Shown here piece after piece: positions 1,134-40,124 of a stretch of DNA of 64,000 nucleotides (its first letter is position 1; every line of letters begins with the position of its first letter). Under the pieces are notes generated by a model. That model saw nothing but the letters and a program-made list of their open reading frames with translations, made no database searches and was not told the origin of the DNA. Made by a program: the position numbers and the translations under genes. The DNA is from Nitrospirota bacterium (lineage in GTDB: Bacteria; Nitrospirota; JACRHJ01): assembly GCA_963733375.1 (NCBI GenBank), contig CAVTDB010000003.1, positions 160,001 to 224,000 on the forward strand. Direction: 5' to 3'.

Positions 1134-1155
1134 GATGCACCTCCTTGTTAAATGG

Positions 1156-1178
1156 AAAAGGCCCCAAGAGGGGCCTTT
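1156..1178 (-). terminator. Hairpin between transposase and ATPase genes
   Basis: AAAAGGCCCC-AAGA-GGGGCCTTT; T-run follows on the minus strand. Confidence 0.55.
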
Positions 1179-1180
1179 CA

Positions 1181-3181
1181 TCAGACATACGAGGCGAGCC
1201 TTGCCTCATATTCGGTTAGCCAGCTTCTTTCGTCAGGGCTTAAGTCCTGCCTGCTTTTGAGTGCCAGATATTTGTCGTAGTCTGATTTGTATAGGCCATT
1301 GCTTTTTGTTTTTTTACTTCTTACTATTCCGTCTGCAACCGTCATATGACTGGAGGCAAGCTTTGCCTCCAGTGCCTCGACGTGTTCCGCTATCCTGGGA
1401 ACTGTGGGCACAATCTCATGCCAGGGCAGCACCGCATCCTTGGAGGCGGCCTTGGCCATTTTAACGACCTTTAGAGTCTGGCGCTTAAGGGAGCGTTTCC
1501 TGCGGATGCCTTCCTTCACCGCGTCCATAGTCACCGGGTTGCCGGTAAGCTTTGCCATCGAGTGGACCGCCTCTACCAGCTTAGCTGCGCCCAGGTATTC
1601 GCCACGTGTTGTGTAAACCAAAATCTGAGTGAGGTCGAAGAAGCTGTAGCGTATGCGGACTTTGTCTCGTAAACCGTAAAGGGCCTCGTGGAAGTACTCG
1701 TTGCCGAGGAACCTGATGCCGTTCCTGCCGATGGACGCCGTCTCAACGGATAGCATAAGGTAATCAAGCTCACGTGCATTTATTCCATTACCACGTCCTG
1801 CATTAAGGACCTCGCCCGGTGTGTGCCCATCGAGGCCGCCGTGTGGCTGTGTGCGGTAATATTCCCGCCACTTGCCTATCATGGCCATAGTCTCCGGTAT
1901 TGTGGGTACCCAGTCGTTATGCAGGCTCTTGAGGAATTTTTCATTCCGTTTCATGTAGCCGGGTTTATCCTCTATGGAAGCGCCAGTAAACGAGGGCATT
2001 AGCCTCTCAAACGAATCGGAGAACGTCCCGAAGAAGCGCTCAATCGGTTTGCTCTGCGCGTTATATGGCCAGGCAAAGGACGTAATAATGCCGAGCCTCG
2101 CAAACATCCCGTAGAAGCCGCACTCCTCAAGGCTCAACTCGCTTGTAAATACCTTCGCCTTGAACGCCTTGCCATTGTCGAGCAGGGCTGCCTTCGGAAA
2201 TTTGCCCAGCTCAAGGACTGCATTACGGAGCGCTCCAGCAACGGCCTGGATGTTCTCCTCGACCATAATCTCATAACCTAACAAGTCACGGCTGGCCCAG
2301 TCGTAGAAACCAACGAGTACCGCACGGCAAGGTTTTCCGGTGTACGGGTTTATCACCTGAAAATTAAGCCTGTGGCCGTCGGCGACCAGAACGTCGCCGA
2401 CATCAAGAAGGGATGAATCACGTTTCAGGAACGGGAGCACCTTGTCGTTTAGCGCCTTCTCACCTTCACGGAGCGCAATCCACAGGTCGTAATGGCGCTT
2501 CTTGAAGTTATCGACAAACCGGCGAAGGGTCATGCCTGATGAATGCGAGGGGAGGCCACGGCGTTCCAGAATATACTTTGTCAGTTTTATTGCCGTCTCG
2601 ACCTTGACCTGGTTCTGATGCAGAAGCTGCGTAAGGAGCAGGTTGGCCTCGTCTTCGGTGACCTTCGACCTCTCACCGCGATTATTGGTGGGTCCTGGGG
2701 CCAGGACACGGTAGTCGCTGTCCCCGTCCTTGTATGCCTTCTCCCACCGGTATAGCGTCCCGCGCGAGATGGTGCCCAAAACCTTGAATATCTCCGGAAG
2801 CAGATGGCCGGTATTGTATGAGAGCAGGAAACAGCCCAAAGCGTCTCCTACACTACACGATGCGATAGCGATTTTCTTGTCCTTGTGCCAGGCACCAAGC
2901 AGGTCGGCACGAGCAAGTGCCGATTTTTCGGTCCGTGCGGGCAGGTGCCTTTTATCGGCTGCACATATATTGGAAGATCGAGTCTGGTCCGTTTTACACT
3001 TAAGGTAGTTGTCTTGAACTTCAGGTGGGAGGGCGGAGAGAGGGATCAGGTACTTCCAGCCCGATGTGCCACGAGGGACTTTCTCGGCTGGCATTTTTCC
3101 CAGGCTGATGAGCCTCTGGACCGACCTGACCGTTATTCCCAGGAGGTCCGCTACCTCGGTAATCTCAAGTCTTGATTCCAT
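1181..3181 (-). CDS. MuA-like DDE transposase (element A)
   Basis: 666 aa; N-terminal HTH, VADGH (D), LLDNGKAF (D), SKPIERFF (E), Mu transposase C-terminal GIRF...Y...VRIRY. Confidence 0.92.
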   Translation of the reverse strand: MESRLEITEVADLLGITVRSVQRLISLGKMPAEKVPRGTSGWKYLIPLSALPPEVQDNYLKCKTDQTRSSNICAADKRHLPARTEKSALARADLLGAWHKDKKIAIASCSVGDALGCFLLSYNTGHLLPEIFKVLGTISRGTLYRWEKAYKDGDSDYRVLAPGPTNNRGERSKVTEDEANLLLTQLLHQNQVKVETAIKLTKYILERRGLPSHSSGMTLRRFVDNFKKRHYDLWIALREGEKALNDKVLPFLKRDSSLLDVGDVLVADGHRLNFQVINPYTGKPCRAVLVGFYDWASRDLLGYEIMVEENIQAVAGALRNAVLELGKFPKAALLDNGKAFKAKVFTSELSLEECGFYGMFARLGIITSFAWPYNAQSKPIERFFGTFSDSFERLMPSFTGASIEDKPGYMKRNEKFLKSLHNDWVPTIPETMAMIGKWREYYRTQPHGGLDGHTPGEVLNAGRGNGINARELDYLMLSVETASIGRNGIRFLGNEYFHEALYGLRDKVRIRYSFFDLTQILVYTTRGEYLGAAKLVEAVHSMAKLTGNPVTMDAVKEGIRRKRSLKRQTLKVVKMAKAASKDAVLPWHEIVPTVPRIAEHVEALEAKLASSHMTVADGIVRSKKTKSNGLYKSDYDKYLALKSRQDLSPDERSWLTEYEARLASYV

Positions 3182-26094: not shown

Positions 26095-26853
26095 ATGCAA
26101 AGCAAAAAAAAGAAAAAAGTTGTGGCGTATTGCAGGGTATCAACTTTAGAGCAGAAGAAAAAAGGGCATGGGATAGACATCCAGATTAGGGACGCTACTT
26201 TATTTGCAGAGAGGCATGGTTTATTGATTGAGAAATTCTACAGAGATGAGGGCGAGAGCGGCGTAAAGGAAGAGCGGAAGGCTTTAAAGCTATTGATGCG
26301 GGCTTGTAGGAATAACAGGATTGAGACGATTATCCTGCCGTCGCTCGACCGGCTCTCAAGGGAGGTCAGGATCGCCGAGAACATCTTTCATGAGCTTAAA
26401 AACCTGGGAGTGAAGGTTCTGATAGCTGACATGCCCTACTATAACGGAGAGCGCAAGGACATCCTGATTCGGCAGATTTTAGAGGCGATCGCTGAAGAAA
26501 ACAGAAGAGACATCATCGAACGGCTCTGGAAAGGACGGCAGGAAAGGACGAGGAAGGGCCTCTTCCCAGGCGGAAATCTGCCCTATGGCTATGTCCGAAA
26601 GAATAAGAAAATTTTAGTCCACCCTCACGAGGCCGATATTGTGAATCAAATTTATGCCTCGGCTTCTCACGGACTCTCAGGCGGGGCCATAGCGGATCGT
26701 TTAAATCAGTTTGGATACAGAAGAAGAAACGGCAAACCATGGACTCAGCGGCAGGTATGTCGAATACTGCACCACGTACGGATTTATCAAGGAGGATTAG
26801 TGCACTATGGAGAGGTTTTTGGAAGAATTAATTCCGCGGCTATTTTAGTTTAG
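26095..26853 (+). CDS. Serine recombinase (catalytic plus recombinase domain, short form)
   Basis: YCRVST..Q, SG..R, LDRLSR, PYGY, IADRLN..G...R.GKPW. Confidence 0.9.
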   Translation: MQSKKKKKVVAYCRVSTLEQKKKGHGIDIQIRDATLFAERHGLLIEKFYRDEGESGVKEERKALKLLMRACRNNRIETIILPSLDRLSREVRIAENIFHELKNLGVKVLIADMPYYNGERKDILIRQILEAIAEENRRDIIERLWKGRQERTRKGLFPGGNLPYGYVRKNKKILVHPHEADIVNQIYASASHGLSGGAIADRLNQFGYRRRNGKPWTQRQVCRILHHVRIYQGGLVHYGEVFGRINSAAILV

Positions 26854-27178: not shown

Positions 27179-27248
27179 TGTAGCGCACCAAAATCTGTGT
27201 CAGTAAAGCCACATTATTTGTCAGTGTGATAGCCGAGATATTTGTCAG
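27179..27248 (+). repeat. End of element C with three transposase-binding-like TGTCAG sites
   Basis: TGTCAG at 27198, 27219 and 27243 (the latter two as TATTTGTCAG); the same 10-mer is inverted at 34791-34800. Confidence 0.8.
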
Positions 27249-27372
27249 AAATACTTCTCAAAGCTAACACCAAATTCTCAAATCATTTGGGAAATAATAT
27301 CACAAGGCGGGGCTTTAAAAAAGGTTTTAAAGGGGCCGAAAAGCCTCCTTTAAAACCTTTTTTAAACGGGGT

Positions 27373-28431
27373 TTATTCTACTCTTTTGCTGTATTTCTTG
27401 AAACTTTCAGCCGATATTCCGAAGCCCTTATTAACTTCCTGTTGTGTTGATCCGGCGATCAGGTTGGACTCAGGCAAGCGGCTCGCGCCGAACTCCCTGA
27501 GGGACACCACCACCGGCGCGACGGCGATAAAAGACTTTAACGCCTCTAAATCCTTCCCGGCCAGGTCGTCAGCCCAGGGACGCATAGCGGGCGTTATTTT
27601 ACCGGCCTGCATAGCCTCCTGTATGACGTTTTCAGTGTCCCGCACAACTATCTCTCTCCTTAGCTGTTCAAGTTCGCCCTGGGCCTCCTGTGCGTTCTCT
27701 TTATGCGCCTGTATTGTAGACGGAGGCCCGTTCTTGTCGATGCACTTTTTCCATGCGGCCTCTATCTTGTCCATGATTTCCTTTTGCTGCTCAGGAGTAT
27801 AAGCGGCGGCGTCTTCCTGGCGGTTGATGGAATCCCAAGCCGCCCGCACCCGCTCCGGGTCCAATTTGCCGCCCTTCTTTAACGGGTATCTGGGCATTCT
27901 GTCCGACTGATACCCCATATCAGCGTATCCGGCCTCTTTGTGCGTCCCGTACTCGCCTTTTGGGGGAGTATCATCAACACCCTCTTTGTTGACGACGGGG
28001 ATCATGCCGTCAATCGCGGGCGCATTTGTTAAGGCGGCGTTCACGAATTCAATAACCCGGCCTGTAGCCTTTTTTACGAAAACGACCGGAGAGAGATAAC
28101 GGTATTCGCGGTTTTTAAGATACTCCCGCGCCTTCTCGGTCCATTCCACGGTAGCCCAAATGCCGCCTTCCTTGCCGTCGCCCCTATCTTCAAGCCCCTT
28201 TATCCAACCCGCAGCCGGGGCCTGTGTCCCCGCTAAGGTTTGGTGTTCATAGTCAATCACCGTGTCATTTTGAAGCGCCGAATATTTAGCAAGAACCTCT
28301 TTCCTTGATTCGGCGTCCACCAGCATCTCAGGCTTCCCTTTCGGAGAGATTTTACCGCCCGGAAGAACCTGTATAAAGGTCGGAATCCCCTGTAAATCCG
28401 CACCAACTGAAAATGCTACTTTCTCCTTCAC
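27373..28431 (-). CDS. Mu gpI-like prohead protease/scaffold
   Basis: VIDYEHQTL, AAGWI, VEWT..A...L...EYRYLSPV, AALTNAPAIDGM, GKITPAMRPWA. Confidence 0.9.
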   Translation of the reverse strand: MKEKVAFSVGADLQGIPTFIQVLPGGKISPKGKPEMLVDAESRKEVLAKYSALQNDTVIDYEHQTLAGTQAPAAGWIKGLEDRGDGKEGGIWATVEWTEKAREYLKNREYRYLSPVVFVKKATGRVIEFVNAALTNAPAIDGMIPVVNKEGVDDTPPKGEYGTHKEAGYADMGYQSDRMPRYPLKKGGKLDPERVRAAWDSINRQEDAAAYTPEQQKEIMDKIEAAWKKCIDKNGPPSTIQAHKENAQEAQGELEQLRREIVVRDTENVIQEAMQAGKITPAMRPWADDLAGKDLEALKSFIAVAPVVVSLREFGASRLPESNLIAGSTQQEVNKGFGISAESFKKYSKRVE

Positions 28432-28447
28432 TTAAACCTCCTATTCA

Positions 28448-28999
28448 TCACACCCCCTTCAACAAAAAGTCTTCAAGCTCTTCACCAATCTCCCGCCAGT
28501 CCTCGTCCTGGACAACCAGGAAGGGCCTGGCGGGGATGGTTACCTTTTTGCCGCGCCCAGCCTTGCCGCCGAAGTTCTGAATCGCGGCGTATTTTTTATC
28601 CGACCCGACCACAATACCGCCGTCACTTGCCCTAACAACAATATCATCTGAGAGTTGCCCCGACTTAATGAGGATTTTGCGCCTCTTGCGTATCTCTTCG
28701 GGGCTCATGCCTTTCTGATAGCCGCCGCTCTTCTTTAGGACGCCGCCTTGGCCGTACTTATTTTTCCCCGCGTACAGCGACGCTACTGAAAGTTCTTTCC
28801 ACTTCTCGTTGCCGCCTTTCGCGCTGCCCGGCTCCGAGTACCGGCCCCCGACCTCGAAGTTTTTTATGACGGAGGTCCTGACCGTCTCGCCCATTTTCTT
28901 AAAAGCGGGCAGGAGCTTGCCCGTGCGGCGTCCAATTTCGAGGAGTTTTTTAATTCCCGTATCGTCTATTTCGACCTTTAACGGCTCAAATCCCGACAT
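28448..28999 (-). CDS. Mu gpG-like virion morphogenesis protein
   Basis: KILIKSGQL, VGSDKKYAAIQNFGG, IPARPFL. Confidence 0.88.
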   Translation of the reverse strand: MSGFEPLKVEIDDTGIKKLLEIGRRTGKLLPAFKKMGETVRTSVIKNFEVGGRYSEPGSAKGGNEKWKELSVASLYAGKNKYGQGGVLKKSGGYQKGMSPEEIRKRRKILIKSGQLSDDIVVRASDGGIVVGSDKKYAAIQNFGGKAGRGKKVTIPARPFLVVQDEDWREIGEELEDFLLKGV

Positions 29000-29063
29000 G
29001 ATCTCCTCTCCCTCTGTAAAAATTCCATTTTTAAGTGCCCCTTAAACGCTGGTGCTGCCCTCT

Positions 29064-29101
29064 CTCCCCCGGAGGGCTACATTCGTAGCCCTCCGGGGGA
29101 G
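29064..29101. terminator. 17-bp perfect hairpin after the capsid gene
   Basis: CTCCCCCGGAGGGCTAC-ATTC-GTAGCCCTCCGGGGGAG; no clear T tail, so possibly an mRNA stabiliser. Confidence 0.55.
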
Positions 29102-29136
29102 TCGGCGCAACGGGCGAGAAGGGTCCCCGGTGCGGC

Positions 29137-30027
29137 CTATTGAGTGCCGTCGCTGCCGTATGCTAACTGCCAAAGGCCATAGCCCGCGTTATCGCGGCTG
29201 TCCACGCCGAACTTGTACTCTTTCTTCATAAACACGGAATCTTCATCCGGGCGGTTGATCATTGTCACCACCGGCGCTTTGCGCTGCTGGAATACGAGCG
29301 CCTTAACCGCCTTCTTGCTATCTAAGAGATACCAGGCGGTCGGACTGGCGGACAGGCCGGGAACCACCAAAAGTTCGGCGCTGCCCTTCCATTGATTTGA
29401 TGTTGCGTCGATCAAGTCGTTATGGAGGAGAATGCGGCCAACCTCCTCAAGTTGCGGCGGCACGGCGAGAAGATCGGGCACGATGTTTAATATCTTTCCC
29501 TGGTCATCCTTCAAGGACATCATCTGCGACCTGGCAAGCGCATAACTGTTTGAGGCGAGGATGCCGTGGCCGAGATTCGATTGTATCGCGCCATCGAGGC
29601 CATAAGGGTGTGCAGCGGTGAAAAAGGGTAGGCCGTCGTAACATAAGCCTGTGAAACCGCCAAGGAGAAGCTCATATAAAAGCTCGTCCGGGTGGTATTT
29701 CGCGGCCTCTGCCATTGAAGCCACAAGCGGCTTATATACGCCATACCTGTCGTCTTCAATGTCATTCCTGTCGATCGCGACGGTTGATTCCCAGTCCCGG
29801 TTCTTTATGCTGTAGTCATACAGCTTCATGTTAGCCAGGACCCTTTCACCTATCCATTCCCGCATCCTGGGGAACCTGCCGAGCCATGCGTAAATTTCTT
29901 CCCGCGTGGCAGAGGGAACCGTCGTGGCGAGCTTATTTAAGACGCTGGGCGTCGTCTCAAACACCTCATTAAAGATCGTTGCGACACTTTGGTAAACGAT
30001 CTGCAAATTCGCCTGATTGATAATCAT
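29137..30027 (-). CDS. Mu gpT-like major capsid protein
   Basis: YAWLGRFPRMREWIGER, IKNRDWESTVAIDRNDIEDD, CYDGLPFF, FGVDSRDNAGYGLWQLAYGS. Confidence 0.93.
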   Translation of the reverse strand: MIINQANLQIVYQSVATIFNEVFETTPSVLNKLATTVPSATREEIYAWLGRFPRMREWIGERVLANMKLYDYSIKNRDWESTVAIDRNDIEDDRYGVYKPLVASMAEAAKYHPDELLYELLLGGFTGLCYDGLPFFTAAHPYGLDGAIQSNLGHGILASNSYALARSQMMSLKDDQGKILNIVPDLLAVPPQLEEVGRILLHNDLIDATSNQWKGSAELLVVPGLSASPTAWYLLDSKKAVKALVFQQRKAPVVTMINRPDEDSVFMKKEYKFGVDSRDNAGYGLWQLAYGSDGTQ

Positions 30028-30040
30028 ACTTCTCTGCCTC

Positions 30041-30313
30041 CTATTGAGATTGTTTTTGCCGCATTATTGCGGAACCTTCACGCCGTCTTTCATAAGCTTC
30101 TTTATAAAGCCTAAAAAGCTCTTCCTCTTCATAGCCCAATTTAGTAATAGCAACTGCCAATTTTTCATAGGTAGAAAACTGCGGCACGGCCCCATGTTCT
30201 ATATCGCTCAACGTCTGGTTAGAAAAATTGAAACGCTTCTCAAAGTCCACGATTGTCAGCCCCGCCCGGAGACGAGCTTCAAGGATATATTTTGCCAGGG
30301 TGGAAGCTTTCAT
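30041..30313 (-). CDS. XRE-type HTH protein
   Basis: ARLRAGLT...FSNQTLSDIEHG..P. Confidence 0.7.
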   Translation of the reverse strand: MKASTLAKYILEARLRAGLTIVDFEKRFNFSNQTLSDIEHGAVPQFSTYEKLAVAITKLGYEEEELFRLYKEAYERRREGSAIMRQKQSQ

Positions 30314-30591
30314 TTCGGGGGCCTTTTGATTCCCTTCACGACGTAATTAATCCAGCGAGTAGTTTTTTCATATTTCCTTGCTAATTTTCTCACGTCCGCC
30401 CCTGTGCTGAATTCTTCTCTAATGCTCCTGTTTCTTGCCCTTGCCGTGCAACGCTTAAAAATCGGAACATACATGGCAGTACCGCCTATTTTTTCGCAAA
30501 GCTGTACCGCCATATCCAGCCCGATCACGTCCGCCACCCTTAAATAATAGTCAGGGAAATCTTCTATCTTTATTTCTTCTTTAAGGTCCAT
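30310..30591 (-). CDS. Mor/C-family transcription activator
   Basis: IGGTAMYVP...RNRSIREEF..G..VRKLARKY..T.RWI. Confidence 0.85.
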   Translation of the reverse strand: MDLKEEIKIEDFPDYYLRVADVIGLDMAVQLCEKIGGTAMYVPIFKRCTARARNRSIREEFSTGADVRKLARKYEKTTRWINYVVKGIKRPPK

Positions 30592-30694
30592 TAAATTGCT
30601 CCCTTAAGTTTAGGGCCGGACCCGATAGACGGTGCGGGTCCGGCCCCCATTGCCAGGGGAGAGAGGAGGAAGTCCCCGGCAAATTATAAATCAC

Positions 30695-31060
30695 TCAAAC
30701 TTCCCCCGATGAAACTAACATTTCCGATATCTCTACAAGGCGCTTTATCTGGTCCTCCAAAAGATAAGCGATACCTGTTAATCGTCGGATATTGAAATTT
30801 TGCGTCTCTCCAAGGGCAAGTAGAGATTCAGTAATTCCCTCAAGCCGGAAAGTGACATTATCAATTTCATCACGCTGATCTGCCGCTATGGGAAAAAGCT
30901 CTCGAAGCGTTTTAGCCGTTGGAGTAATCTTAAGCTTCGGCGTTAAAGACCTGCTTCTTTTCTCAATCTCCTTGCCTATAGTCTGAATTAAGCTTGTCAG
31001 CTTTTTATCACTCGCAGTGCTGATTTCATGTTTAAACTCGCGGCCCATTGTCTCCCCCAC
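30695..31060 (-). CDS. Hypothetical protein (element C)
   Basis: 121 aa ORF co-oriented in the operon. Confidence 0.55.
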   Translation of the reverse strand: MGETMGREFKHEISTASDKKLTSLIQTIGKEIEKRSRSLTPKLKITPTAKTLRELFPIAADQRDEIDNVTFRLEGITESLLALGETQNFNIRRLTGIAYLLEDQIKRLVEISEMLVSSGEV

Positions 31061-31130
31061 TCTAAACCTCGTTTAAAAGGCGTTTAAAAGCCTCTGCGCG
31101 GTCCTTAAAACGCAACCGCCTCCCTTACCC

Positions 31131-31802
31131 CTAAACAAGCACCAAATCCTCAGCAGCGGCCTTTATAAGCTCCGGGGTAGTTTCCTTAATTCCGTTTACT
31201 TCTTTAAGGCCCGCTATATTTTTTAATAGCTGAGACAAAATGCGAAGATTTCCCCTTGAAGCTTTGTGTAAAAGCTTTGTCGTTTCGGAATCCAGTTCCG
31301 GTAAAGCTAACCGCATTTCCGAAAGGTCCAGGTTAGAAAAATCAGCCCGGAACTGTAACCTTGAGCTTAATTGGTCCAGGCGCTGTTTTCTTAACCGGCC
31401 CGTGAATTTCCTGGACCCGATGAAAAGGACCGGCGCGCCGCTTGCGTCGTGAAGGCCGCGAATCAGTTCCAAAACGTCTGTGCTTAGAAGGTCCACTTCA
31501 TCAACAATGGTTATACCGTGCTGCCATTTGTAATGCTTTAAGGCTTGTTCATACCGGGCCGAAAGTGTCCAGTCCCGGTATTGAACCATCTTGTCCAGGA
31601 GCGCATTTAAATACTCGCTCGGTGTCATTAAGTTATGCCCGGAGACGAAATAACACCGTGCATGGCCTTGTTCTGCATAAAGATTTGCAGCTGTGGTTTT
31701 GCCTGTCCCGGCAGAACCTATAACCAGCGCCATTGATTTGTTATCAATGACCCTCGCCGCGATCTCGCGGAATTTCCTTGTGTACGTCGTCTCCAAAACC
31801 AT
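31131..31802 (-). CDS. MuB-like AAA+ ATPase (element C)
   Basis: GSAGTGKT, IVDEVD, IRGLHD, LSSR, SRGNLRIL. Confidence 0.9.
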   Translation of the reverse strand: MVLETTYTRKFREIAARVIDNKSMALVIGSAGTGKTTAANLYAEQGHARCYFVSGHNLMTPSEYLNALLDKMVQYRDWTLSARYEQALKHYKWQHGITIVDEVDLLSTDVLELIRGLHDASGAPVLFIGSRKFTGRLRKQRLDQLSSRLQFRADFSNLDLSEMRLALPELDSETTKLLHKASRGNLRILSQLLKNIAGLKEVNGIKETTPELIKAAAEDLVLV

Positions 31803-31822
31803 AAATCCTCCTTTTACGGTTC

Positions 31823-33713
31823 TTAAGAGTTTGCCGCCTTAGCCTCAGCGGCTTCCTTGTCTGCTACAAATCTATAAATATTGTTTTTCTTAACTTGCGG
31901 CGCGCGATCTTCCTCGTGTTTTGCTTTTACTGCCTTACGTTCTTTTTTCAGATGCATAGGGACGGTTACAAATCCAGGGACTATAACCGGATCGGAAGCC
32001 CGTTTTATAGCCTCGTCTCTCACGTCCTCAATGATCGCGCCTTTATCAACCAGGGCGATATAATCTTCAATCTGCTTTTTCTGATTTTTCTTCTCTCTTG
32101 CTATCGCCCTGTAATCCTCTTCCGTGATGTGATAGCCCATTAATTCGCGGTCCTTTGCATGGCAGATATATTCACCCCTAAAGAAGCAAATAATTTCGCC
32201 CTTGTTTTTATATACCGGCCTGATTTCAACGCTCTGCCCGATGAACTCAAAAAGCGCCTCATGCTGATATAAAATATTGTCGTATTGAATTCCTTGAGTA
32301 GTAACCTTCCTGGGCACTCTTGAAGCGGCCACCACTTCAAGGACTTCGGGCGGCGCTGTTACTTTCGCTACCTTGGAAAATTCACAATGCCTTTCAAGGC
32401 ATGATTTTTTAAGCGGCCTTCTAAATTCCTTGTGGTACTTGTCTTTTATGTAGCTGTAAATGATCCGTTCCAGGTCAGCCATTGTTAAAAGCGGCTTTAT
32501 ATCGTCCGGGCGATTTTCGGGGTTTCTGCCGCAATAGCCCGGCAGTTTTGAGATACACTGTCCTTCAAAGGTCCTAAAAAATCTTTCAATCGGTTTCGAT
32601 GATCCTCTATATGGAATAGCATGAGTTTTATCAACTCCCATGTCATTAAGAAGCGCTTCAAAATCGGCGCTTAAGTAGTCCTTGCCGTTATCGACATAGA
32701 CGGATGCCGGAACTCCAAACATTGGATAATCCTTATCCGGCTTGGGCGCGACTCCATTCATAAAGCTCTGCATAATGGTTAAAGAGTTGCCCTGAAAGGT
32801 CAGACTATAACCGACAATGCTCATATCACATAGGTCCATCCATGCGGATAGCCAGGGCCTTACTGCCTTGCCATTTTTGTTCTTTATAAAGAGGTCCAGC
32901 TTATGATGATCGCCGCACCAAATATCATTTATGAAGTCCGGTTTCTTACGCGCGGTTTTTACTTCAAATTTATCCGTAAAGGTTTTTTTGGTTTCGCGCT
33001 CATGGGCTATTACAGCCGGGGGATACTTCCGATGATCCTCCGGGCGGCGGTATAAGACAATTTCTCGCCCCGCGCATCCGCAATCGGTAGCGTCTTTTCA
33101 TAAACTTCCAAAATGGAATATTTAGGCTTGCTTAAATAAAATTTCTGGAGCGTCTTTTGAACTTCATCGGATACCGCCCGGATAATGCCTTTGTCTTTGC
33201 GGTCCTTACGGCAGAGGGCTTTATAGTCTTTTTCTTTCCAGGCGCGCACCCACCTGAAAACGGTGCGGGGCGACACCTCGTTAGCAGTCTGCGATTTTCC
33301 CGGCCAAAACGGTTCTTATCCGTGGCGTCCGAAAAAAGGAGCGGCTGTATAATTTCTATCTTTTCGCTTACCTCGTTTTTTTCCTCATTGCTTAAATAAA
33401 GCCATTGGCTATCAGTCGGCTTTTGTTCAGGTGCGGGGGACGTGGGCTTTATTGGAAGGTTTGCATTTGCGAGATATTTAGCGGGCAGGTTATACAGGCT
33501 TTCCAATAAAATCAGCGTCTGCCTTTTTCCATTGCGGGACGTGCGGGGGGCCGGGCGAGCGACAAGCGAATATTTTTTAGGAAGACGTTTAGCGGTCCTC
33601 AAGGGGGTTTTGAGGATGTTCGCCATTTCTCCTATGGTTATATACTTATCGTCCACGCCGGGCCCCTTGTGATTAAAAATCCAGCAGGTGTTTTTTATCG
33701 CAGAGGTCCTCAA
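31823..33713 (-). CDS. MuA-like DDE transposase (element C), split by two frameshifts (~33015, ~33290)
   Basis: Consecutive frames give an N-terminal HTH, SPRTVFRWVRAW HTH, WCGDHHKLD...RPWLSAWMD, VDNGKDY, SKPIERFF; one added C in the run at ~33020 rejoins the frames. Confidence 0.85.
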
Positions 33714-33984
33714 GGGCGGCTTTCATCTCCTGCGCATACGCTATGGCATTACCCGTCTCCAGGAGGTCCCGCTTGTGGTACTCGTAAAGCTCGATCTCCT
33801 TTACGTCGTGGCTCCCGCTCATAAGGGCTTTTCTTTCCTTCTCCACCCTTGCGATGGTGTCCTTCATGTTTGCCTTTTCTTCGGCAATGAACGTGTCTAT
33901 GCCGCCCTGGATGTAGCGGCTCAGTTTCAGGCTCATTTTCTTCGGGCTGATAATCAGCCTCTTTTTAGTGTTTTCCATCTCCAT
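33673..33984 (-). CDS. Hypothetical protein, first early gene of element C
   Basis: 103 aa helical ORF with an AAGGAG RBS. Confidence 0.6.
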   Translation of the reverse strand: MEMENTKKRLIISPKKMSLKLSRYIQGGIDTFIAEEKANMKDTIARVEKERKALMSGSHDVKEIELYEYHKRDLLETGNAIAYAQEMKAALEDLCDKKHLLDF

Positions 33985-34080
33985 CTCCTTAATCTCCTTT
34001 CATTGTTTACTGTTTACAGCGCCCTTAAGATTTGTTAAACTCCCAGTTAATTTTTTCTTGTAGCGGAATATAAATGCAAT

Positions 34081-34123
34081 AATATTTCATTAAACGAAAT
34101 ATGTCAAATAAAATATTTCATTA
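34081..34123. promoter_or_regulatory. Divergent promoter/operator region of element C
   Basis: AATATTTCATTA twice; ATATTTC-N7-GAAATAT inverted repeat; TTGACA on the minus strand (34101-34106). Confidence 0.55.
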
Positions 34124-34146
34124 TTTACAACTTCATTTAAATTCTA

Positions 34147-34545
34147 ATGCCGCCTTCTTTTAAAGTTGAATTAGGTCAAAGACTTAAAAAAGTGCGCCAA
34201 TCTATGGAAATGACGCAAAAACGATTTTGTCTTCATTTTGGGCCTACTGTTGAAAGTCCAAGCCTGTTAAGCCGGTATGAATCCGGCGATATTAACCCGC
34301 CGATATATCTTTTTAAGCTCCTTGCGGATCAAACGATTAATCTTAATTGGCTGTTTACAGGCGAGGGTCCTATGTACCTCGACGGTGATAAGCCTTTATC
34401 GGTTCCCGACTCTGCTACACGGCGAGAACTTGACGCAATATGGAAAACACATCGGATTTTTAAAGAGTGTGGGGCCGATAAGGTTAAGGCTTTAACGGTC
34501 TTCTTAAATTCCCTTGATCCTGGCCGGGATAATAAAGAGAAGTAA
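34147..34545 (+). CDS. XRE/CI-like repressor (element C)
   Basis: RLKKVRQ...MTQKRF...LLSRYESG..NP...INLNWLFTGEGPM; divergent from the early operon. Confidence 0.85.
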   Translation: MPPSFKVELGQRLKKVRQSMEMTQKRFCLHFGPTVESPSLLSRYESGDINPPIYLFKLLADQTINLNWLFTGEGPMYLDGDKPLSVPDSATRRELDAIWKTHRIFKECGADKVKALTVFLNSLDPGRDNKEK

Positions 34546-34594
34546 ACATACTTTTTTAGAAATCGTAACAAACAGGGGCCACAATTTAAAAAGC

Positions 34595-34824
34595 AAAAGT
34601 GGCCCTGGGATAATTCCTAATAATCGGCACCTAAGAGCCGAAACTCCTTTAAATGTTTAGTTTTTTAGATTTTGGCCCTTGGATTCAAGGTTTTTTAATA
34701 AAAGTGGCCCTGGGATAATTCCTAACAAAGCTTATCCTATTGTAAAATTTAGGCTATCCCGTTTTGAGAGTTTACATAACATTTCCGTTACTGACAAATA
34801 AACTGGCTATTTGGCCCTTGGATT
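34595..34824. repeat. TGGCCCT(G/T)GGAT repeats near the end of element C
   Basis: 26-bp exact repeat at 34595-34620 and 34700-34725; TTTGGCCCTTGGATT at 34671 and 34810. Confidence 0.85.
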
Positions 34825-35019
34825 TGGGCGGCTTTCCGATGCCTGGGGCGATAAAATCAGGGGTTTTAAAGGTTTTTTAAAGGAGGGTTAATCTATTGCA
34901 TTATAAGGGATTTAATTTCTCTTTAAATCTCGTTTAAGAGGTTCCATTTCCCACGTAATCCCGCGTTTTCTCGTTTTTTCCCGCGATTTTAATATTGACA
35001 TATAAAGTGACTACCTACA

Positions 35020-35595
35020 GCCGTGGAGTACCTTGCAGGCGTCTTTCGTCAGCTCCACCTCGCATAGCTCCTTGACCGCCGTGGCCACGTCGTCTTCGTC
35101 CAGCGGCCGGAACTTGTATATCTGGCTTATCCGGGAGAAGAAGTGGGGGTGCCTCTTCAGCATCCGGTCCACCTTGCCCATCCCGATAAGGACGATGGGC
35201 GTGCCGCATTCGTCGTGCAGGTCCCTGAGCGATTCCAGCACCCGCGTATCACGGCAGCAGAAATCTATCTCGTCCACCAGGAGCATGGTTTCCTGTTTCA
35301 TCAGTTTCTCTTTCGCCTGCTCGAAGAGCTTCGCGTAGTTGTATTTGGGCTCCTCGCCCAGTTCCGCGACTATCAGCTCCATCAGCCAGCGCGCGCTTAT
35401 GTTGGCCTTGGCGCGGATGTATTTCGCGTTAGACCCCTTGCGGCCGACGAGCCACGAGCAGGTCTCCGTCTTGCCGAGCCCCGGGTCGCTATAGACAAGC
35501 CCCAGCCCCGGCACGCTTGGCTTCTTATCGCGCAGGTTCTTCACCAGCTCCAGCGTCCGCATCACGTTTTTTGTCTTTACAATGGCATTGCGCAT
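35020..35595 (-). pseudogene. MuB-like ATPase of element B, C-terminally truncated by element C
   Basis: Clear paralogue of 429-1133 (SDPGLGKTETC, LRDLHDECGTP, RHPHFFSRISQI); similarity ends at the element C end. Confidence 0.88.
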
Positions 35596-35670
35596 CTGGT
35601 ATTGTTTCCTCCATTCGTCGTTCGTACTGCTCGGTTTGTTAGGCCCTCGTTGCCGCGGGGGCCATGCTTT

Positions 35671-37794
35671 TTACGCGTACTGAAGTTCCTTTTCGTATCG
35701 CTCCAACCACCCCCTTTCATCCTTCGTCATGGTTGCCTTGCCCTTCAAGTCCTCGTATTTTTCGTAGTCCGACTGGTAGAGCTTGCGGGATAGCTTCGGC
35801 GGCACCGCCTCGGTAGAGGGGCCTGCTGTTTCGCTGGCAGGCATATAAGCTTGTCGGCAAGGGAAGTAGCCGCGCACCGGCGTTCCGTCTCTAACGTGGC
35901 AACGTCCGCTATCAGCCTCGGCATCTCGCGTGTCAGCCTCGCCTGTGACCAGGGCGTCCGGGACTCCGTACCCGGCCGCAAGATATGCCCGCGCGGTTTT
36001 AATCGTCTGTTTTCGGAGGTGGGCCTTGTTCTTGTTCGCCTGGCTGACCGCCTCCATATCCACCTTGCTTCCGGTGAGAGCCGCCATCGCGGGCACGGCC
36101 GTCTGGAGGCTTGCGGAGCAGAGATAGCCGCCGTTCGGAAGATAGACATGCACCTGTTCTACATCGAAGACCGAATACCGGATTTCCGCCCGGCCAGCAT
36201 ATCCGTAGAGGGCGTCGTGCCAGTAGTTCAGGCCGCGCCAGCGTATGCCCTCGCGGGTCACCTTGGTCACCTCGGCTGACATCATCAGGTAGTCGAGTTG
36301 ACGGGCGTCGATGCCGGAGCCGCGTCCAGCGGCGAAGACCTCGGCGGGAATCCGGCCCTGTAGTCCCTTGTGCGGCTGGGAGTGGTGGAACTTGAGCCAC
36401 CGGCCTATCATCTCCACGGCCTGCGGGATGCTGGGGACGAAGTCCCCGTGGGCCTGTTTATGGAATTTCTCGTTGCGCATCATCCAGGTGGGCTTGTCTT
36501 CTATGGAGGCTCCGGTAAAAGACTCGATCATCCGTTCGCACTGGTCCCCGAACGTGCCCCAGAAGCGCTCTATTATCTTCGCCTGGGCGTTGTACGGCCT
36601 GGAGAAAACGGGCTTGATGCCGAGCCTGCCGAAGAGGCCGACTATGCCGCATTGCTCCAGGTCCACATCCGACGTGAAGAACTTCGCCCTGAATGATTTG
36701 CCGTTGTCCTGATAGGCTATGCGCGGGAATTTGCCGAGCGTAAGGATCGCGTTCCGCAGCGCCCCCGCGATTACCTGTGTGGTCTCCTCTATCATGATCT
36801 CGTAGCCGCAGAGGTAACGCGAGGCCCAGTCTATGTAGCCTATCAAGGTCGCCCGGCAGGGCTTGCCGGTCCAGGGATTAATCACGAGGAAGTTCAGCCT
36901 GTGCCCGTCCGTTATGAGCACGTCCCCGACCTCCAGCATCGAGCTATCGCGCTTGATATACGGCGATACCTTGTCGTTTAGGGCCTTCTCGCCCTCGCGC
37001 ATCAGCACCCACAGGTCCCGCTGGGTATCCATGAATTCTTTGATATGGCGCTCTAACGTTTTCGGGGACGAGGGGGAAGGGATTCCCTTCTCTTCGAGGA
37101 CGTACTTCATAAGCCTTATAGCCGTCTGCACCGGGCGTTTCTGGGGGGTAAGCAGGATATTCAGGAGAGTCGTGGACTCGTGGGCCATGACCGAACGGGA
37201 GCCCTTGCTTGTGCCCCACTCCGGCGCCAGGGCGCGGTAGTCGTTGCCCGACTCGATGTATGTCTTTTCCCAGCGGTAAAGGGTGCCCTGGCTGACCGTG
37301 TCCAGCTCCTTGAAAATCTCTTCCAGCAGGACTCCGGAATTGTAGGCCGCGAGGAAACGGCTGAGCGCGATCTTCGTCTTGCGTTCCTTCTTGGCGTCGT
37401 CTTTCGCCTTGTGCCAGGCATGCACGAGGTCCGCTCTGGCAAGGGCCTTTTTCTGGGCCCAGGGCGGGAGGATTCCTGAAGCAACACCGGGAATCATAAC
37501 GCCCCTCCCAGCCCCACTCCCTGCGGCGGGAGGGGGCGTGGCGATGGAGGAGCGGCCCAAGGCCGGAGGAGCCACCGACTGGCCTTGCAATTTAAGATAT
37601 TCAGCCTGGGCGGAAGGGGGAAGGGAGGATAGCGGGACGAGATATTTCATGCCGCCCCGGCCGCCGCGTGAGGGGACTTCTTTGGCGGCGAGTTTCCCGG
37701 AAATTATTTGACGCCGGAGGGTCCGTTCCGTTGTCTGTAAACCTATCGTTCCTAAAAGCTCTGCTACTTGTTTTACTTCAAGTAGTGCCTGCAT
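35671..37794 (-). CDS. MuA-like DDE transposase (element B)
   Basis: ITDGHRLNF, QDNGKSF, KIIERFW; shares many blocks with 1181-3181; ATG at 37794 with an RBS. Confidence 0.9.
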   Translation of the reverse strand: MQALLEVKQVAELLGTIGLQTTERTLRRQIISGKLAAKEVPSRGGRGGMKYLVPLSSLPPSAQAEYLKLQGQSVAPPALGRSSIATPPPAAGSGAGRGVMIPGVASGILPPWAQKKALARADLVHAWHKAKDDAKKERKTKIALSRFLAAYNSGVLLEEIFKELDTVSQGTLYRWEKTYIESGNDYRALAPEWGTSKGSRSVMAHESTTLLNILLTPQKRPVQTAIRLMKYVLEEKGIPSPSSPKTLERHIKEFMDTQRDLWVLMREGEKALNDKVSPYIKRDSSMLEVGDVLITDGHRLNFLVINPWTGKPCRATLIGYIDWASRYLCGYEIMIEETTQVIAGALRNAILTLGKFPRIAYQDNGKSFRAKFFTSDVDLEQCGIVGLFGRLGIKPVFSRPYNAQAKIIERFWGTFGDQCERMIESFTGASIEDKPTWMMRNEKFHKQAHGDFVPSIPQAVEMIGRWLKFHHSQPHKGLQGRIPAEVFAAGRGSGIDARQLDYLMMSAEVTKVTREGIRWRGLNYWHDALYGYAGRAEIRYSVFDVEQVHVYLPNGGYLCSASLQTAVPAMAALTGSKVDMEAVSQANKNKAHLRKQTIKTARAYLAAGYGVPDALVTGEADTRDAEADSGRCHVRDGTPVRGYFPCRQAYMPASETAGPSTEAVPPKLSRKLYQSDYEKYEDLKGKATMTKDERGWLERYEKELQYA

Positions 37795-37861
37795 ATCCAC
37801 CCTCGGTTTTAGCCGTTGACATTCGCGTTGGGACGTTTTAAAATCCAGTTCAATCTTGAAC

Positions 37862-38146
37862 TCAGGCGGCGCAGTCGTCCGCGCGGTAACGGAGCGGCCA
37901 GAGGGTTTCCTTCGGCACGCCCAGTATGGCGGCGACGTAGGTCTGTACCCGCTCCGATTTGTCCCGGTCGTATACGGCGTACTTAACGCCGTTGCAGGAC
38001 ACACCCATTTGGCGGCCTATTTTCGACCAGTTAAGGTTCCTGCGGCGAAGCTCGTGGTAGATGATCCGGCCCCGTTCCTGGCGGTCCGTCTCAAGATTGA
38101 GCTGGCGGAGGAAGAGCTTCATGTGGGATTTTTCTCTTACTGTCAT
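37862..38146 (-). CDS. Ner-like HTH regulator
   Basis: ELRRRNLNWSKIGRQMGVS...VAAILGVPKETLWPLRY. Confidence 0.75.
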   Translation of the reverse strand: MTVREKSHMKLFLRQLNLETDRQERGRIIYHELRRRNLNWSKIGRQMGVSCNGVKYAVYDRDKSERVQTYVAAILGVPKETLWPLRYRADDCAA

Positions 38147-38164
38147 GTCGGGTACTCCTTAACT

Positions 38165-38581
38165 ATGAGCGGTTATGCCACATACGCGTACTCAAGTAGC
38201 GAACACGTAGCGGAATTAAAAGGATCTCTAACCAAAGAAGATATAGACGCCTTGCGAGAGGACTGCGCCACTCTCGGTAGACCCGCCTGGTACGCCTGGA
38301 TGCGGGATAACAGCGAGGCGATATTTGAATTCCTACTGGCAACACAATCGGTTCGGGACAGGAAGAAGAAATGGAAAGATAAGGTTTACAGGCGGCGGAT
38401 CGTTTACGCCGCCCTACAACAGGCCCGCTGGTCGAAGTCGCTTCTCGACCTACTGGATAGTCGCCCCCTGCAACCGGGGCTTTCATATCGGGAAATGACG
38501 GCAAGGGCCGGGCTGACGTGCCTTGAGATGCTTTTTTTATACAGCCCGGAGTGGCCTTTTGATGCTCCAGTTCCATTTTAA
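38165..38581 (+). CDS. Hypothetical protein antisense to the early operon
   Basis: 138 aa from ATG 38165 (MSGYATYAYSS...). Confidence 0.5.
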   Translation: MSGYATYAYSSSEHVAELKGSLTKEDIDALREDCATLGRPAWYAWMRDNSEAIFEFLLATQSVRDRKKKWKDKVYRRRIVYAALQQARWSKSLLDLLDSRPLQPGLSYREMTARAGLTCLEMLFLYSPEWPFDAPVPF

Positions 38582-38638
38582 CGTGCTCCCTTGTGAATTA
38601 ATTCTCTAATGCGGGTGATGTTGAACTGAAAATACACT

Positions 38639-38672
38639 ATTAATTTATTACTGTCAAGCTAAATAAATTAAT
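38639..38672. promoter_or_regulatory. Operator-like palindrome around a minus-strand TTGACA
   Basis: ATTAATTTATT-ACTGTCAAGCTA-AATAAATTAAT. Confidence 0.55.
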
Positions 38673-38741
38673 AATTTATCGTCCGCAATGATTTTTGATA
38701 TACTTTGGCGACTTCCCGCCTAACCTATTATTTTATTTAGA

Positions 38742-39203
38742 ATGTTTACTATGTCCGCAAAAGAAAAAACGTCCGCAAAAATGTCCGCAAAAGGGCGCGG
38801 AATGCGGACACGTGTTTCTTTTCCTATGGATGTCGATGAAATCCTTGACCGGATTAAGCGATTTGAGGGTATTACGGAAGACAAAGAGGTGGCTGATAAA
38901 TTATTAATGAAGCCCCAGTCTTTATTTAACGCCAAACTTGCGAGAAGAATTCCCCTTGATATATTAGCTATTTACGCACAGGAAAAGGGTATATTATTCG
39001 AGTGGCTTTTAACCGGCGAAGGCCCTGAGCGGCTGGCCCCACTGGCTTTGAAGGAGGAATACCAGGACATCCGCCTGGCTAATATGATACATCTCGTGCG
39101 GAAAATCTATAAAGAGGGGAAGGCGGCGAAGATCGAGGCGATAGAGTCTCTTTTAAAGGCGCTTAATCCGGAGGAGCCTAAAAGGAGGGGGAAAAAAATA
39201 TGA
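38742..39203 (+). CDS. Phage CI-like repressor (element B); true start possibly 38826
   Basis: ILDRIKRFEGITEDKEVA..L...RRIP...FEWLLTGEG. Confidence 0.8.
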   Translation: MFTMSAKEKTSAKMSAKGRGMRTRVSFPMDVDEILDRIKRFEGITEDKEVADKLLMKPQSLFNAKLARRIPLDILAIYAQEKGILFEWLLTGEGPERLAPLALKEEYQDIRLANMIHLVRKIYKEGKAAKIEAIESLLKALNPEEPKRRGKKI

Positions 39204-39763
39204 TAACTATGACGAGGTTTTTACAATGCGTGTTCGATCCACAGCCGGAGGAAAACCATCTTGCAAGCCGGTACGATGCCTTTATTGAAGAGGCACAACG
39301 GCTTAAAGGGATTATAGACCGTCACATGCAGGCTGCAAGAGATGGTAAGACCATTAAAACTATAGAAAATAACGTCGAAAAAGCGAAAGCAGCGGCCATA
39401 CAACTAATAAAGATTACGCCGCCTGGACATAAAAATAGCGTCTTTGCAAAAATCATAATTTTTACGGTGATAAATTTTAGACATATAACGACTCTTGAGG
39501 AGATTGTTTTTTTCGATGAGGCAAAAAAGGAATTATTTCAAGCGTTTTATGAAGGTAAAATTACTGACGAAATGCCGCGACCGGGCATAGGAAAGCATCC
39601 AGAATTAAAAATTTTACAATATAAGAAAGCGTTGAGATGGACTTTAAAGGCTTTGGATTTTTTCCCTAATAATGAATGTTTTAATGAATATAAGAGCGAT
39701 ATTACGGAATGCATTGACGAATTAAAACCCATAGCGGGAGCGATAAAGAAGGTGAAAAAATAA
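39200..39763 (+). CDS. Hypothetical protein co-transcribed with the repressor
   Basis: 187 aa AT-rich ORF with an ATGA overlap. Confidence 0.6.
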   Translation: MITMTRFLQCVFDPQPEENHLASRYDAFIEEAQRLKGIIDRHMQAARDGKTIKTIENNVEKAKAAAIQLIKITPPGHKNSVFAKIIIFTVINFRHITTLEEIVFFDEAKKELFQAFYEGKITDEMPRPGIGKHPELKILQYKKALRWTLKALDFFPNNECFNEYKSDITECIDELKPIAGAIKKVKK

Positions 39764-40007
39764 GGCGGCCTGTGCCGCCCTCTTACATGCGCCGAGCGCA
39801 CGGTTTAAAATTCTCAAATTGCTTGTCTAAAACTGCCCTTCCGAGCCGTTTATTCTCAAATTGGCTTTTCCCGGCGATTTTCAGAATAGTCCTTTAAATC
39901 CCGTTATTTCCCATGTATTCCCGCCTTTTCCCGGCGTTTTCAGATTACTTGTCTTACTATAGTTGGATGAAAATTGCTACAATTTTGCTACATTGCCCGT
40001 TTTTGGC

Positions 40008-40049: not shown

Positions 40050-40124
40050 TGGTAGGCGATGGGGGGTTCGAACCCTCGACCCCTGCCGTGTGAAGGCAGT
40101 GCTCTCCCGCTGAGCTAATCGCCC
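40050..40124 (-). tRNA. tRNA-Val(CAC)
   Basis: Reverse complement GGGCGATTAGCTCAGCGGGAGAGCACTGCCTT-CAC-ACGGCAGGGGTCGAGGGTTCGAACCCCCCATCGCCTACCA; cloverleaf with encoded CCA. Confidence 0.97.

Follow-up and report, generated by a model that had tools for sequence, protein, structure and literature searches.

A Natural Mini-Mu with Head Genes in a Nitrospirota Genome: A Candidate Transposable, Capsid-Encoding Phage Satellite

A Mu-Type Element with Head Genes Only

Here, we analyze a Mu-type transposable element of 7,841 bp (7.8 kb; element A), which occupies positions 27179–35019 of a 64-kb stretch (the window) of the genome of a Nitrospirota bacterium (genome G000). An original prediction, made from the DNA alone, had described it as a transposable phage satellite that encodes a capsid. 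Element A is a discrete transposon-ended unit, in which a Mu early module is joined to a Mor-T-G-I module with nothing else of a virion. In our view it is somewhat probable that it represents a natural mini-Mu, namely a phage satellite that encodes its own capsid and relies on transposition in place of an integrase and a replicon.

The genes run in the order repressor, early gene, MuA, MuB, a gene of unassigned family, Mor, a helix-turn-helix (HTH) gene, T, G, and I, all on the minus strand except the repressor (table 1). Pfam and PHROGs clearly assign the head genes as well as MuA, MuB, Mor, and the HTH proteins, in agreement with the predicted content except for one identity: the gene announced as gpG is present (PF05069), and its product is a tail-completion/Neck1 protein (phrog_26). 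The 121-aa protein gave no lead from Pfam, PHROG, or Atlas (best Atlas score 0.85). All nine genes other than MuA are whole open reading frames (ORFs), including T, G, and I, and GGAGG-type ribosome-binding sites accompany T, G, I, and MuB; the head genes are thus intact, as had been proposed. No terminase, portal, F, or tail homologue was found in element A with Pfam, PHROGs, or proteins of canonical relatives as queries, nor any lysis gene with Pfam and PHROGs. The intergenic gaps measure 70–193 bp and no unassigned space exceeds 193 bp; given such short gaps and the lack of homologues, element A contains no gene for the missing virion functions and no remnant of one, and this part of the original prediction also stands. 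The AT-rich element of the palindrome downstream of I has further copies at 31063–31090, after MuB, and at 34863–34889.

Table 1. Features of Element A and of the Adjoining Transposon B (Window Coordinates)
Feature	Position	Strand	Match or remark
Right end: terminal TGTAG, three tandem (T)TGTCAG sites at 27196, 27217, 27241	27179–27260	+	Spacing 21 and 24 bp
Perfect 20-bp palindrome	27314–27366	.	Downstream of I
I: head protease/scaffold, 352 aa	27373–28431	-	PF10123 (Mu-like_Pro) 1.5e-67, 1-330 of 330 (full model)
G: virion morphogenesis / tail completion-Neck1, 183 aa	28448–28999	-	PF05069 (Phage_tail_S) 8.4e-16; phrog_26 2.2e-20
Perfect 17-bp stem hairpin	29064–29101	.	Inside the 137-bp T-G gap
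T: major head protein, 296 aa	29137–30027	-	PF10124 (Mu-like_gpT) 1.4e-93
Small HTH_3 protein, 90 aa	30041–30313	-	Pfam/PHROGs; between Mor and T
Mor/C-family transcription activator, 93 aa	30310–30591	-	PF08765 4.1e-15
121-aa protein, family unassigned	30695–31060	-
MuB-like AAA+ ATPase, 223 aa	31131–31802	-	AAA_22 1.5e-16
MuA transposase, three frames	31823–33713	-	Mu-transpos_C PF09299 4e-9, rve weak
First early gene, ner position, 103 aa	33673–33984	-	No family match (Pfam, PHROGs)
Early promoter-like site TTGACA-17-TATTAT, 11 of 12	34079–34107	-	Between repressor and early operon
HTH repressor, position of Mu c, 132 aa	34147–34545	+	Pfam/PHROGs; divergent from early operon
Two 29-nt direct repeats, 97% identical	34595–34728	.	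Between repressor gene and left end
Left end: terminal TGTAG, TATGTCAA site near tip, GCGGGA(T/A)TAC..TGGGAAAT motifs, internal TTTGTCAG at 34791–34798	34790–35019	-
Transposon B, left part	35011–39995	-	Context, outside element A
Truncated MuB/TniB-like gene of B	35011–35595	-
777-aa MuA/TnsB-like gene of B	35671–38004	-
CI-like repressor of B	38742–39203	+

Ends of Element A

The signature TGTAG-N14-TGTCA is found at both tips, at 27179 on the plus strand and at 35019 on the minus strand. The window contains the word TTTGTCAG six times, with 1.6 copies expected; as many as six were seen in 1 of 100 shuffles. Three of the six copies in the window fall in the ends of element A in inverted orientation (27217 and 27241 on the plus strand, 34791 on the minus strand); the variant TGTGTCAG at 27196 makes up the third right-end site. 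A 19-nt inverted repeat, 89% complementary, relates 27207–27225 to 34790–34808, and an AT-rich palindromic element lies 125–200 bp inward of each tip. Moreover, the tips resemble those of two independent small elements described below (L102 and L099), with the shared pattern TGTA-N5-TCAC...ATATGT. Judged by these repeats, the ends are real and form a pair, of the TG...CA type with several predicted inverted subterminal sites for a transposase. Matching Mu-type ends had been claimed, with three tandem sites at one and spaced sites at the other, and both arrays are confirmed, one of the tandem sites being the variant at 27196.

Gene Order in Canonical Relatives

Among the 159 IMG/VR loci retrieved through T, I lies upstream of T on the same strand in 149, of which 124 have a portal and 112 a large terminase (TerL) in the locus. 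I is found downstream of T in three loci only (L021, L100, and L102), and the remaining seven have no I match, five of them with T at a contig edge, the others being L099 and L113. Typically, Mor is followed after about 6 kb by portal, F, I, cement, T, gp36, and G. Since G comes after T in these canonical loci, T-then-G is native and I alone is displaced in element A. The claim that simple deletion cannot produce the order T-G-I therefore holds in part: from the order in these relatives, deletion alone cannot place I after G, nor T directly behind Mor, whereas the succession of T and G calls for no such rearrangement.

Small Elements of the Same Kind in IMG/VR

The exceptions to the usual order led to small elements like those that the original prediction had proposed to search for, a set of 12 IMG/VR contigs of 4.0–10.1 kb (L099, L100, L102, L198–L202, L204–L206, and L021), which carry T with I and/or G, mostly together with Mor, MuA, and MuB, and lack the large terminase, the portal, and F. 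With the MuA of L099 as query, five more contigs of 5.0–10.1 kb were recovered; its MuB retrieved 80 loci. Those at 54% identity or more comprise 10 contigs, all of 4.8–10.1 kb (L197, which equals L099, L198–L202, L204–L206, and L207, which equals L100); the loci at 38% or less, for the most part colinear and on 27–42-kb contigs, show the series Mor, small terminase (TerS), TerL, portal, and F. In all 10 small contigs the early operon converges on T, which is preceded by Mor and/or TerS and followed by I and/or G, and in none is TerL, portal, or F matched. Where the contig reaches that far, their early genes are a repressor, a small early gene, MuA, MuB, phrog_286, and a small ORF.

Several of these elements are well delimited. 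L198 is complete: its 7,285 bp have TGTAAT tips and run from TGTAATGC... to ...TTACA with TCCTC on both sides, a perfect 5-bp duplication, so that a true Mu-type insertion is seen in one related element. In L199 the tips are 8,205 bp apart and the flanks amount to 3 and 36 nt, and the L099 contig ends 1 nt outside its tip; contigs that stop at the tips are as expected for elements with many insertion contexts. L102 (8,063 bp) is colinear like element A, with repressor, MuA, MuB, two small ORFs, T, I, phrog_436, and small terminase, and its TGTAA tips, TGTAAAGCGGCACGCAAAATG and TGTAACCCGTCACGCAATATG, stand 7,974 bp apart. The 4-kb contig L021 reads Mor-T-I-G-Arc, followed by a weak small-terminase match. 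For L100, whose contig ends inside MuA, an inverted-repeat search gave nothing convincing, and the 34-kb full-length provirus from the same metagenome prefix (the record of L225), considered as its helper, has no T homologue. Thus, where both tips are seen (L198, L199, and L102), these elements share with element A a span of 7.3–8.2 kb between TGTA tips. The small elements as a group also resemble it in gene content, with a repressor, MuA, MuB, and Mor before T and I and/or G, and with no large terminase, portal, F, tail, or lysis genes. Element A has no small terminase; one is kept in L100, L102, L201, L202, L204, and, weakly, L021.

The pair L201 and L202 is the only one with unsaturated synonymous sites (dS of about 0.3). 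There the ratio of nonsynonymous to synonymous substitution rates (dN/dS), a measurement that the original prediction had also proposed, amounts to 0.05–0.07 for T and I (0.052 and 0.072), compared with 0.068 for MuA and 0.008 for MuB; all other pairs of small elements are saturated at synonymous sites, with pN of 0.14–0.41. Judging from this pair, the head genes of the IMG/VR small elements are constrained like the transposition genes, by purifying selection. The phylogeny of T, computed with IQ-TREE in quick mode from 55 proteins picked by hand out of 185 rows to represent the clades of a 181-row FastTree, places the eight T proteins of IMG/VR small elements in one clade, with an approximate likelihood ratio (SH-aLRT) support of 99. 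The T protein of element A groups with the database protein P0002 (SH-aLRT 100) and then with P0014 (97), and this trio is sister (97) to the T proteins of the host family that resemble the one on contig C10 (C10-type; see below). Furthermore, L102 and L201 share 78% identity in T, and the one MuA pair that was measured, L102 and L099, about 35%, which indicates that T modules cross transposase types. Within 100 columns conserved in 131 canonical T proteins, five differ in all three T proteins of the A lineage and six in the IMG/VR elements, two being shared; one of the two is explained by ancestry, and the other corresponds to residue 110 of the T protein of element A. This residue is Lys or Arg in both small-element lineages, Ala in 106 of the 131 canonical and in 7 of 7 C10-type proteins, and Lys in 18 canonical ones. 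The shared state may reflect convergence or chance, and we dropped such residues as evidence, the signal being too weak.

The arrangement is therefore not a one-off under relaxed selection with full prophages as its closest relatives, the outcome that the original prediction had named as fatal to it: small elements recur, their head genes are under purifying selection, and they form a T clade of their own. A head module that is conserved without the rest of a virion could also serve defense, T, I (and G) poisoning or misdirecting the capsid assembly of infecting Mu-like phages, to the benefit of the host and with no need for packaging. Purifying selection on T and I would agree with such a role, and so would a neighborhood of mobile and defense elements, with a Mu/Tn7-like transposon carrying type I restriction-modification (R-M) and NACHT genes next door; satellites, too, often interfere with the capsids of their helpers. 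On the other hand, the small terminase of several related elements and the neck protein G fit DNA packaging and tail joining better than pure interference, and contigs breaking off at the tips point to many insertion contexts and hence to active spread. We thus regard a defense or exclusion element as unlikely.

Closest Relatives and the Search for a Helper

The T proteins closest to that of element A are P0003 (88% identity, on a 12,481-bp ENA contig), parts of whose sequence look frame-scrambled, and P0002 (86%, on a 4,606-bp JGI contig). A search with Mor returned a single protein, the fragment P0210, 97% identical and likewise on a 12,481-bp contig, so that P0003 and P0210 apparently share one contig, to judge from its equal size. 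By the same token, P0122 (MuA, 70%) and P0014 (T, 60%), each located on one 8,182-bp Logan contig, apparently lie together, with MuA and T within 8.2 kb; if equal size means the same contig, the two would have codiverged with the T and MuA of element A. Wider scans yielded little: with the T of element A, only a 32%-identical match among species genomes and only a 29% match in IMG/VR; with P0122, nothing in IMG/VR and at best 32% in the 400 other genomes of the phylum (401 searched including G000). The 4,606-bp contig of P0002 was not recovered when metagenomes were scanned with this protein, and T of this type is absent from the 60 relatives searched. Element A might in principle be a chimera of an error-prone long-read metagenome assembly, as the very high indel rate of this genome (see below) and the quality of its bin (81% complete and 5% contaminated, in 26 contigs) would allow. 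Yet the linkage of Mor and T is supported elsewhere by P0210 and P0003 on contigs of equal size, the two ends of element A match each other, and independent contigs bear the same kind of element, which makes an artefact extremely unlikely.

The Mu-type portal, the large terminase, and the second T of this genome occur on contig C10 only, and Phage_Mu_F, the HK97-type capsid, the common portal family, and TerL_ATPase have no match in this genome. The C10 cluster (C10:40000–53600; L018) encodes TerL, I, a portal (first ~370 residues), cement, T, gp36, unknowns, a 650-aa tail-fiber-like protein, and an M15 peptidase; it lacks a transposase, and none of its genes could be recognized as sheath, tube, or tape measure. 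Each of the 11 host-family genomes has a T homologue of 59–62% identity. The portal-cement-T order of C10 recurs in loci of 10 relatives and in one metagenome contig (L015); I upstream of the portal is seen in C10 and L015 only, the loci of the relatives being too short to show I. The cluster could be a domesticated or gene-transfer-agent-like particle locus. As the only candidate source of portal and terminase in this genome it invites a link to element A, which is speculative. One such link would make element A a partner of the resident cluster, acting as a mobile source of capsid parts, for instance for a gene-transfer-agent-like particle. The conservation of T across the host family and the recurrent portal-cement-T order speak for this, together with the sister position of the T clade of element A (SH-aLRT 97) and the 55% identity between the N-terminal domains of the two I proteins. 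C10, however, has its own T and I and no evident need for those of element A, no tail sheath, tube, or tape measure is recognized in it, element A is absent from the 60 relatives, and the idea builds on phylogenetic proximity; we consider such a partnership highly unlikely.

Comparison with Known Systems and Proposed Mechanism

Element A shares with Mu-like phages (Mu itself and, as the closest isolate found, Faecalibacterium phage FP_Mushu, 36.6 kb) a DDE transposase MuA with Mu-transpos_C, a MuB ATPase, a repressor transcribed divergently from the early operon, a Mor activator, TG ends that bear several subterminal sites, and homologues of T, I, and G, its T being 50% identical to that of Mushu. 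It differs from these phages in size (7.8 kb vs. 36–38 kb), in the absence of the terminase, portal, F, tail, and lysis genes of complete Mu-like phages, in the position of T, which directly follows Mor with an HTH gene between but lies about 13 kb beyond the transposase in Mushu, and in having I after rather than before T. Laboratory mini-Mu derivatives have the two Mu ends within a few kb and may or may not include the A and B genes; they are moved by MuA and MuB and packaged only by a helper Mu. Such constructs, however, are engineered deletions without head genes, whereas element A and the IMG/VR elements are natural, keep a Mor-T-I(G) module, and have T clades of their own, with selection measured in the IMG/VR elements.

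To our knowledge, phage satellites insert by means of an integrase and copy themselves with their own replicons. Element A resembles the capsid-forming phage-inducible chromosomal islands (cfPICIs) in being small, with an incomplete set of virion genes and its own major capsid protein and protease, and a small terminase, as in some of its relatives, is carried by phage-inducible chromosomal islands (PICIs). Unlike cfPICIs, it has no integrase (tyrosine or serine recombinase) and no replicon, with MuA, MuB, and transposon ends in their place, and no portal or connector set beyond G, its virion genes being limited to the capsid protein, the protease/scaffold, and one neck protein. In the accessible text of a 2024 review, the satellites listed are P4-like elements, PICI, cfPICI, PLE, PICMI, VEIME, Tycheposons, soil satellites, and pDolos (PMC11389934). 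The accessible portion of a second source mentions one satellite, which is P4-like (10.64898/2026.05.11.724261), and that of a third describes a satellite without structural genes (PMC10689766). Within the portions of text that were available, full-text literature searches found no satellite of Mu type or based on a transposase.

Our findings are consistent with a model where the repressor silences element A and, upon induction, MuA and MuB would replicate and move it by transposition. Mor would activate T-G-I, and the 17-bp hairpin after T would favor T over G and I. T and I would then build procapsids, giving element A a shell and a scaffold of its own, with capsids that would probably be fitted to a genome of about 8 kb. 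The portal, large terminase, tail, and lysis functions would come from a helper; as the genes for these, and F, are missing from element A, it would leave the cell only in particles completed by the helper. Headful packaging from one end would take up the 8-kb unit together with host flanks, and the smaller shell would both make this efficient and exclude the genome of the helper. A broader proposal is that element A and the IMG/VR small elements constitute a new satellite family, which inserts and replicates by Mu-type transposition without integrase or replicon, brings its own shell and scaffold/protease and in some cases TerS, and borrows portal, large terminase, and tail from a helper; their two separate T clades, and T modules found with different transposases, would then mark a long-lived satellite capsid type, probably with small heads for about 8 kb. 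This we hold as a tentative proposal, possible but short of probable.

Points against the Satellite Interpretation

Several observations weigh against reading element A as a satellite. One is the state of MuA, which the original prediction had taken to be intact and which occupies three frames in the assembly rather than one ORF. It is nonetheless complete across them, colinear with the intact 612-aa P0122 (70% identity), with segments covering residues 3–116, 129–215, and 214–599 and frame changes that probably number two near 33300–33280 and one at a C5 run near 33020. As an indel check, we started from 145 ORFs with a length of 300 aa or more, which lie in fifteen 20-kb regions of a genome of the same genus (G002), and kept the 134 with an orthologue of at least 60% identity in the present genome, the other 11 being dropped. 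Of these conserved genes, 67 are split over more than one frame here, often with two shifts close together; the rate is about one frameshift per 2 kb, and the three or four shifts of this type expected per 7.8 kb match element A. With such a split rate genome-wide, the frame state of MuA is uninformative, and assembly error is probably a likelier cause of its breaks than decay; we accordingly rejected them as proof of decay. Pseudogene calls are unsafe anywhere in this genome (for example, contigs C3, C9, and C26 are indel-riddled).

Second, element A is present in a single copy and lacks a 5-bp target duplication, being flanked by TTCCT and GCCGT. Its left end adjoins the interior of the truncated MuB/TniB-like gene of transposon B, which lacks about 40 residues compared with a 64%-identical copy at another place in the window, and the remainder of the gene does not lie on the opposite side of element A. 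Such mismatched flanks would be the expected leftover of an adjacent deletion by intramolecular transposition, or of recombination between two copies. Third, the GC content of 53–56% across T-G-I against 44–49% across the early genes means that element A may be a recent chimera; together with the T tree, this contrast suggests that the head module was acquired within the lineage of the host. Fourth, element A departs from the IMG/VR small elements: 10 of them have a head module convergent with the early operon, whereas it is colinear, as is L102; its order is T-G-I (Mor-HTH-T-G-I) rather than T-I-(G); its T falls outside their clade; and its early proteins are 25–31% identical to theirs or show no detectable similarity. 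In addition, the native T-then-G order weakens the argument from gene order, the contig shared by P0014 and P0122 is deduced from equal size only, and the search of this 81%-complete genome for a full Mu-like helper, which had also been proposed, found none, the transposase-less C10 cluster being all that turned up.

Some of these observations would equally be expected of a decaying remnant, that is, a Mu-like prophage that lost its late region through deletions and rearrangement and whose head genes are intact by chance: the broken MuA, the single copy with non-matching flanks and no target duplication, and the uneven GC content. Degenerate Mu-like contigs do exist. In the scrambled IMG/VR contig L113 (12,186 bp), MuA, MuB, DnaC-like, Gam, phrog_286, endolysin, T, Mor-like, and tape-measure genes are found, with T beside the Mor-like and tape-measure genes, without terminase, portal, or I, and its T falls inside the canonical clade; this is what a truly decayed relative looks like. 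The frame breaks of element A, however, match the genome-wide error rate, its nine other ORFs are whole, with ribosome-binding sites where checked, and it retains both ends, whose internal sites match. Moreover, at least 12 independent contigs show this reduced gene set, T and I being under purifying selection, and T and MuA of element A codiverged with those apparently on the 8,182-bp contig. Decay is thus distinctly unlikely. The satellite interpretation remains plausible from these comparisons and rests on a class rather than on one locus; within this class element A is divergent, present in one copy, and known from a poor assembly. The original prediction is largely borne out in what it described, a discrete mini-Mu with both ends and head genes only; no full helper was found in this 81%-complete genome.

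Neighboring Elements

Transposon B, next to the left end of element A, has its own TGTAG end about 55 bp from a tRNA-Val gene (40050–40124). A sister copy at the start of the window (456–3181 and leftward; G000 C3:145001–161200, L203) contains MuA/TnsB-like and MuB/TniB-like genes and, as cargo, type I R-M methylase and specificity subunits, a metallophosphoesterase, and a 1,602-aa DUF4062-NACHT protein. The sister copy has no virion genes, so we rejected B as a Mu-like prophage in favor of a cargo transposon. Copies related to L203 are the truncated one at 35011–39995 and others on contigs C20 and C1; the L203 transposon represents a Mu-type transposition module that moves defense cargo. Just beyond the right end of element A, a 252-aa serine recombinase ORF (26095–26853; Resolvase and part of the Recombinase domain) represents either a truncated gene or one disrupted by an assembly error; it lies outside element A and is thus not its integrase. 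A motif GCGGGA(T/A)(T/A)AC(G/A)TGGGA(A/T)A is found just inside the ends of element A, transposon B, and unrelated IMG/VR small elements (window 34950–34985, 39900–39925, and 27280–27293; L099:180–240; the right ends of L198 and L199), each time between the tip and an HTH gene.

Conclusions

Small elements similar to element A recur in viral metagenomes and may be phage satellites of a kind not yet described. The class is directly testable, since complete examples whose ends are defined are available (L198, L199, L102, and element A). If the interpretation is correct, a satellite built on the Mu machinery would be a third way of being a satellite, linking transposable phages and satellites, and a natural counterpart of the laboratory mini-Mu. 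Such elements would also offer small self-contained capsid modules, made of a capsid protein and a scaffold/protease, for studies of head size. Finally, Mu-type packaging carries flanking host DNA; elements of this kind could therefore be unrecognized vehicles of gene transfer.

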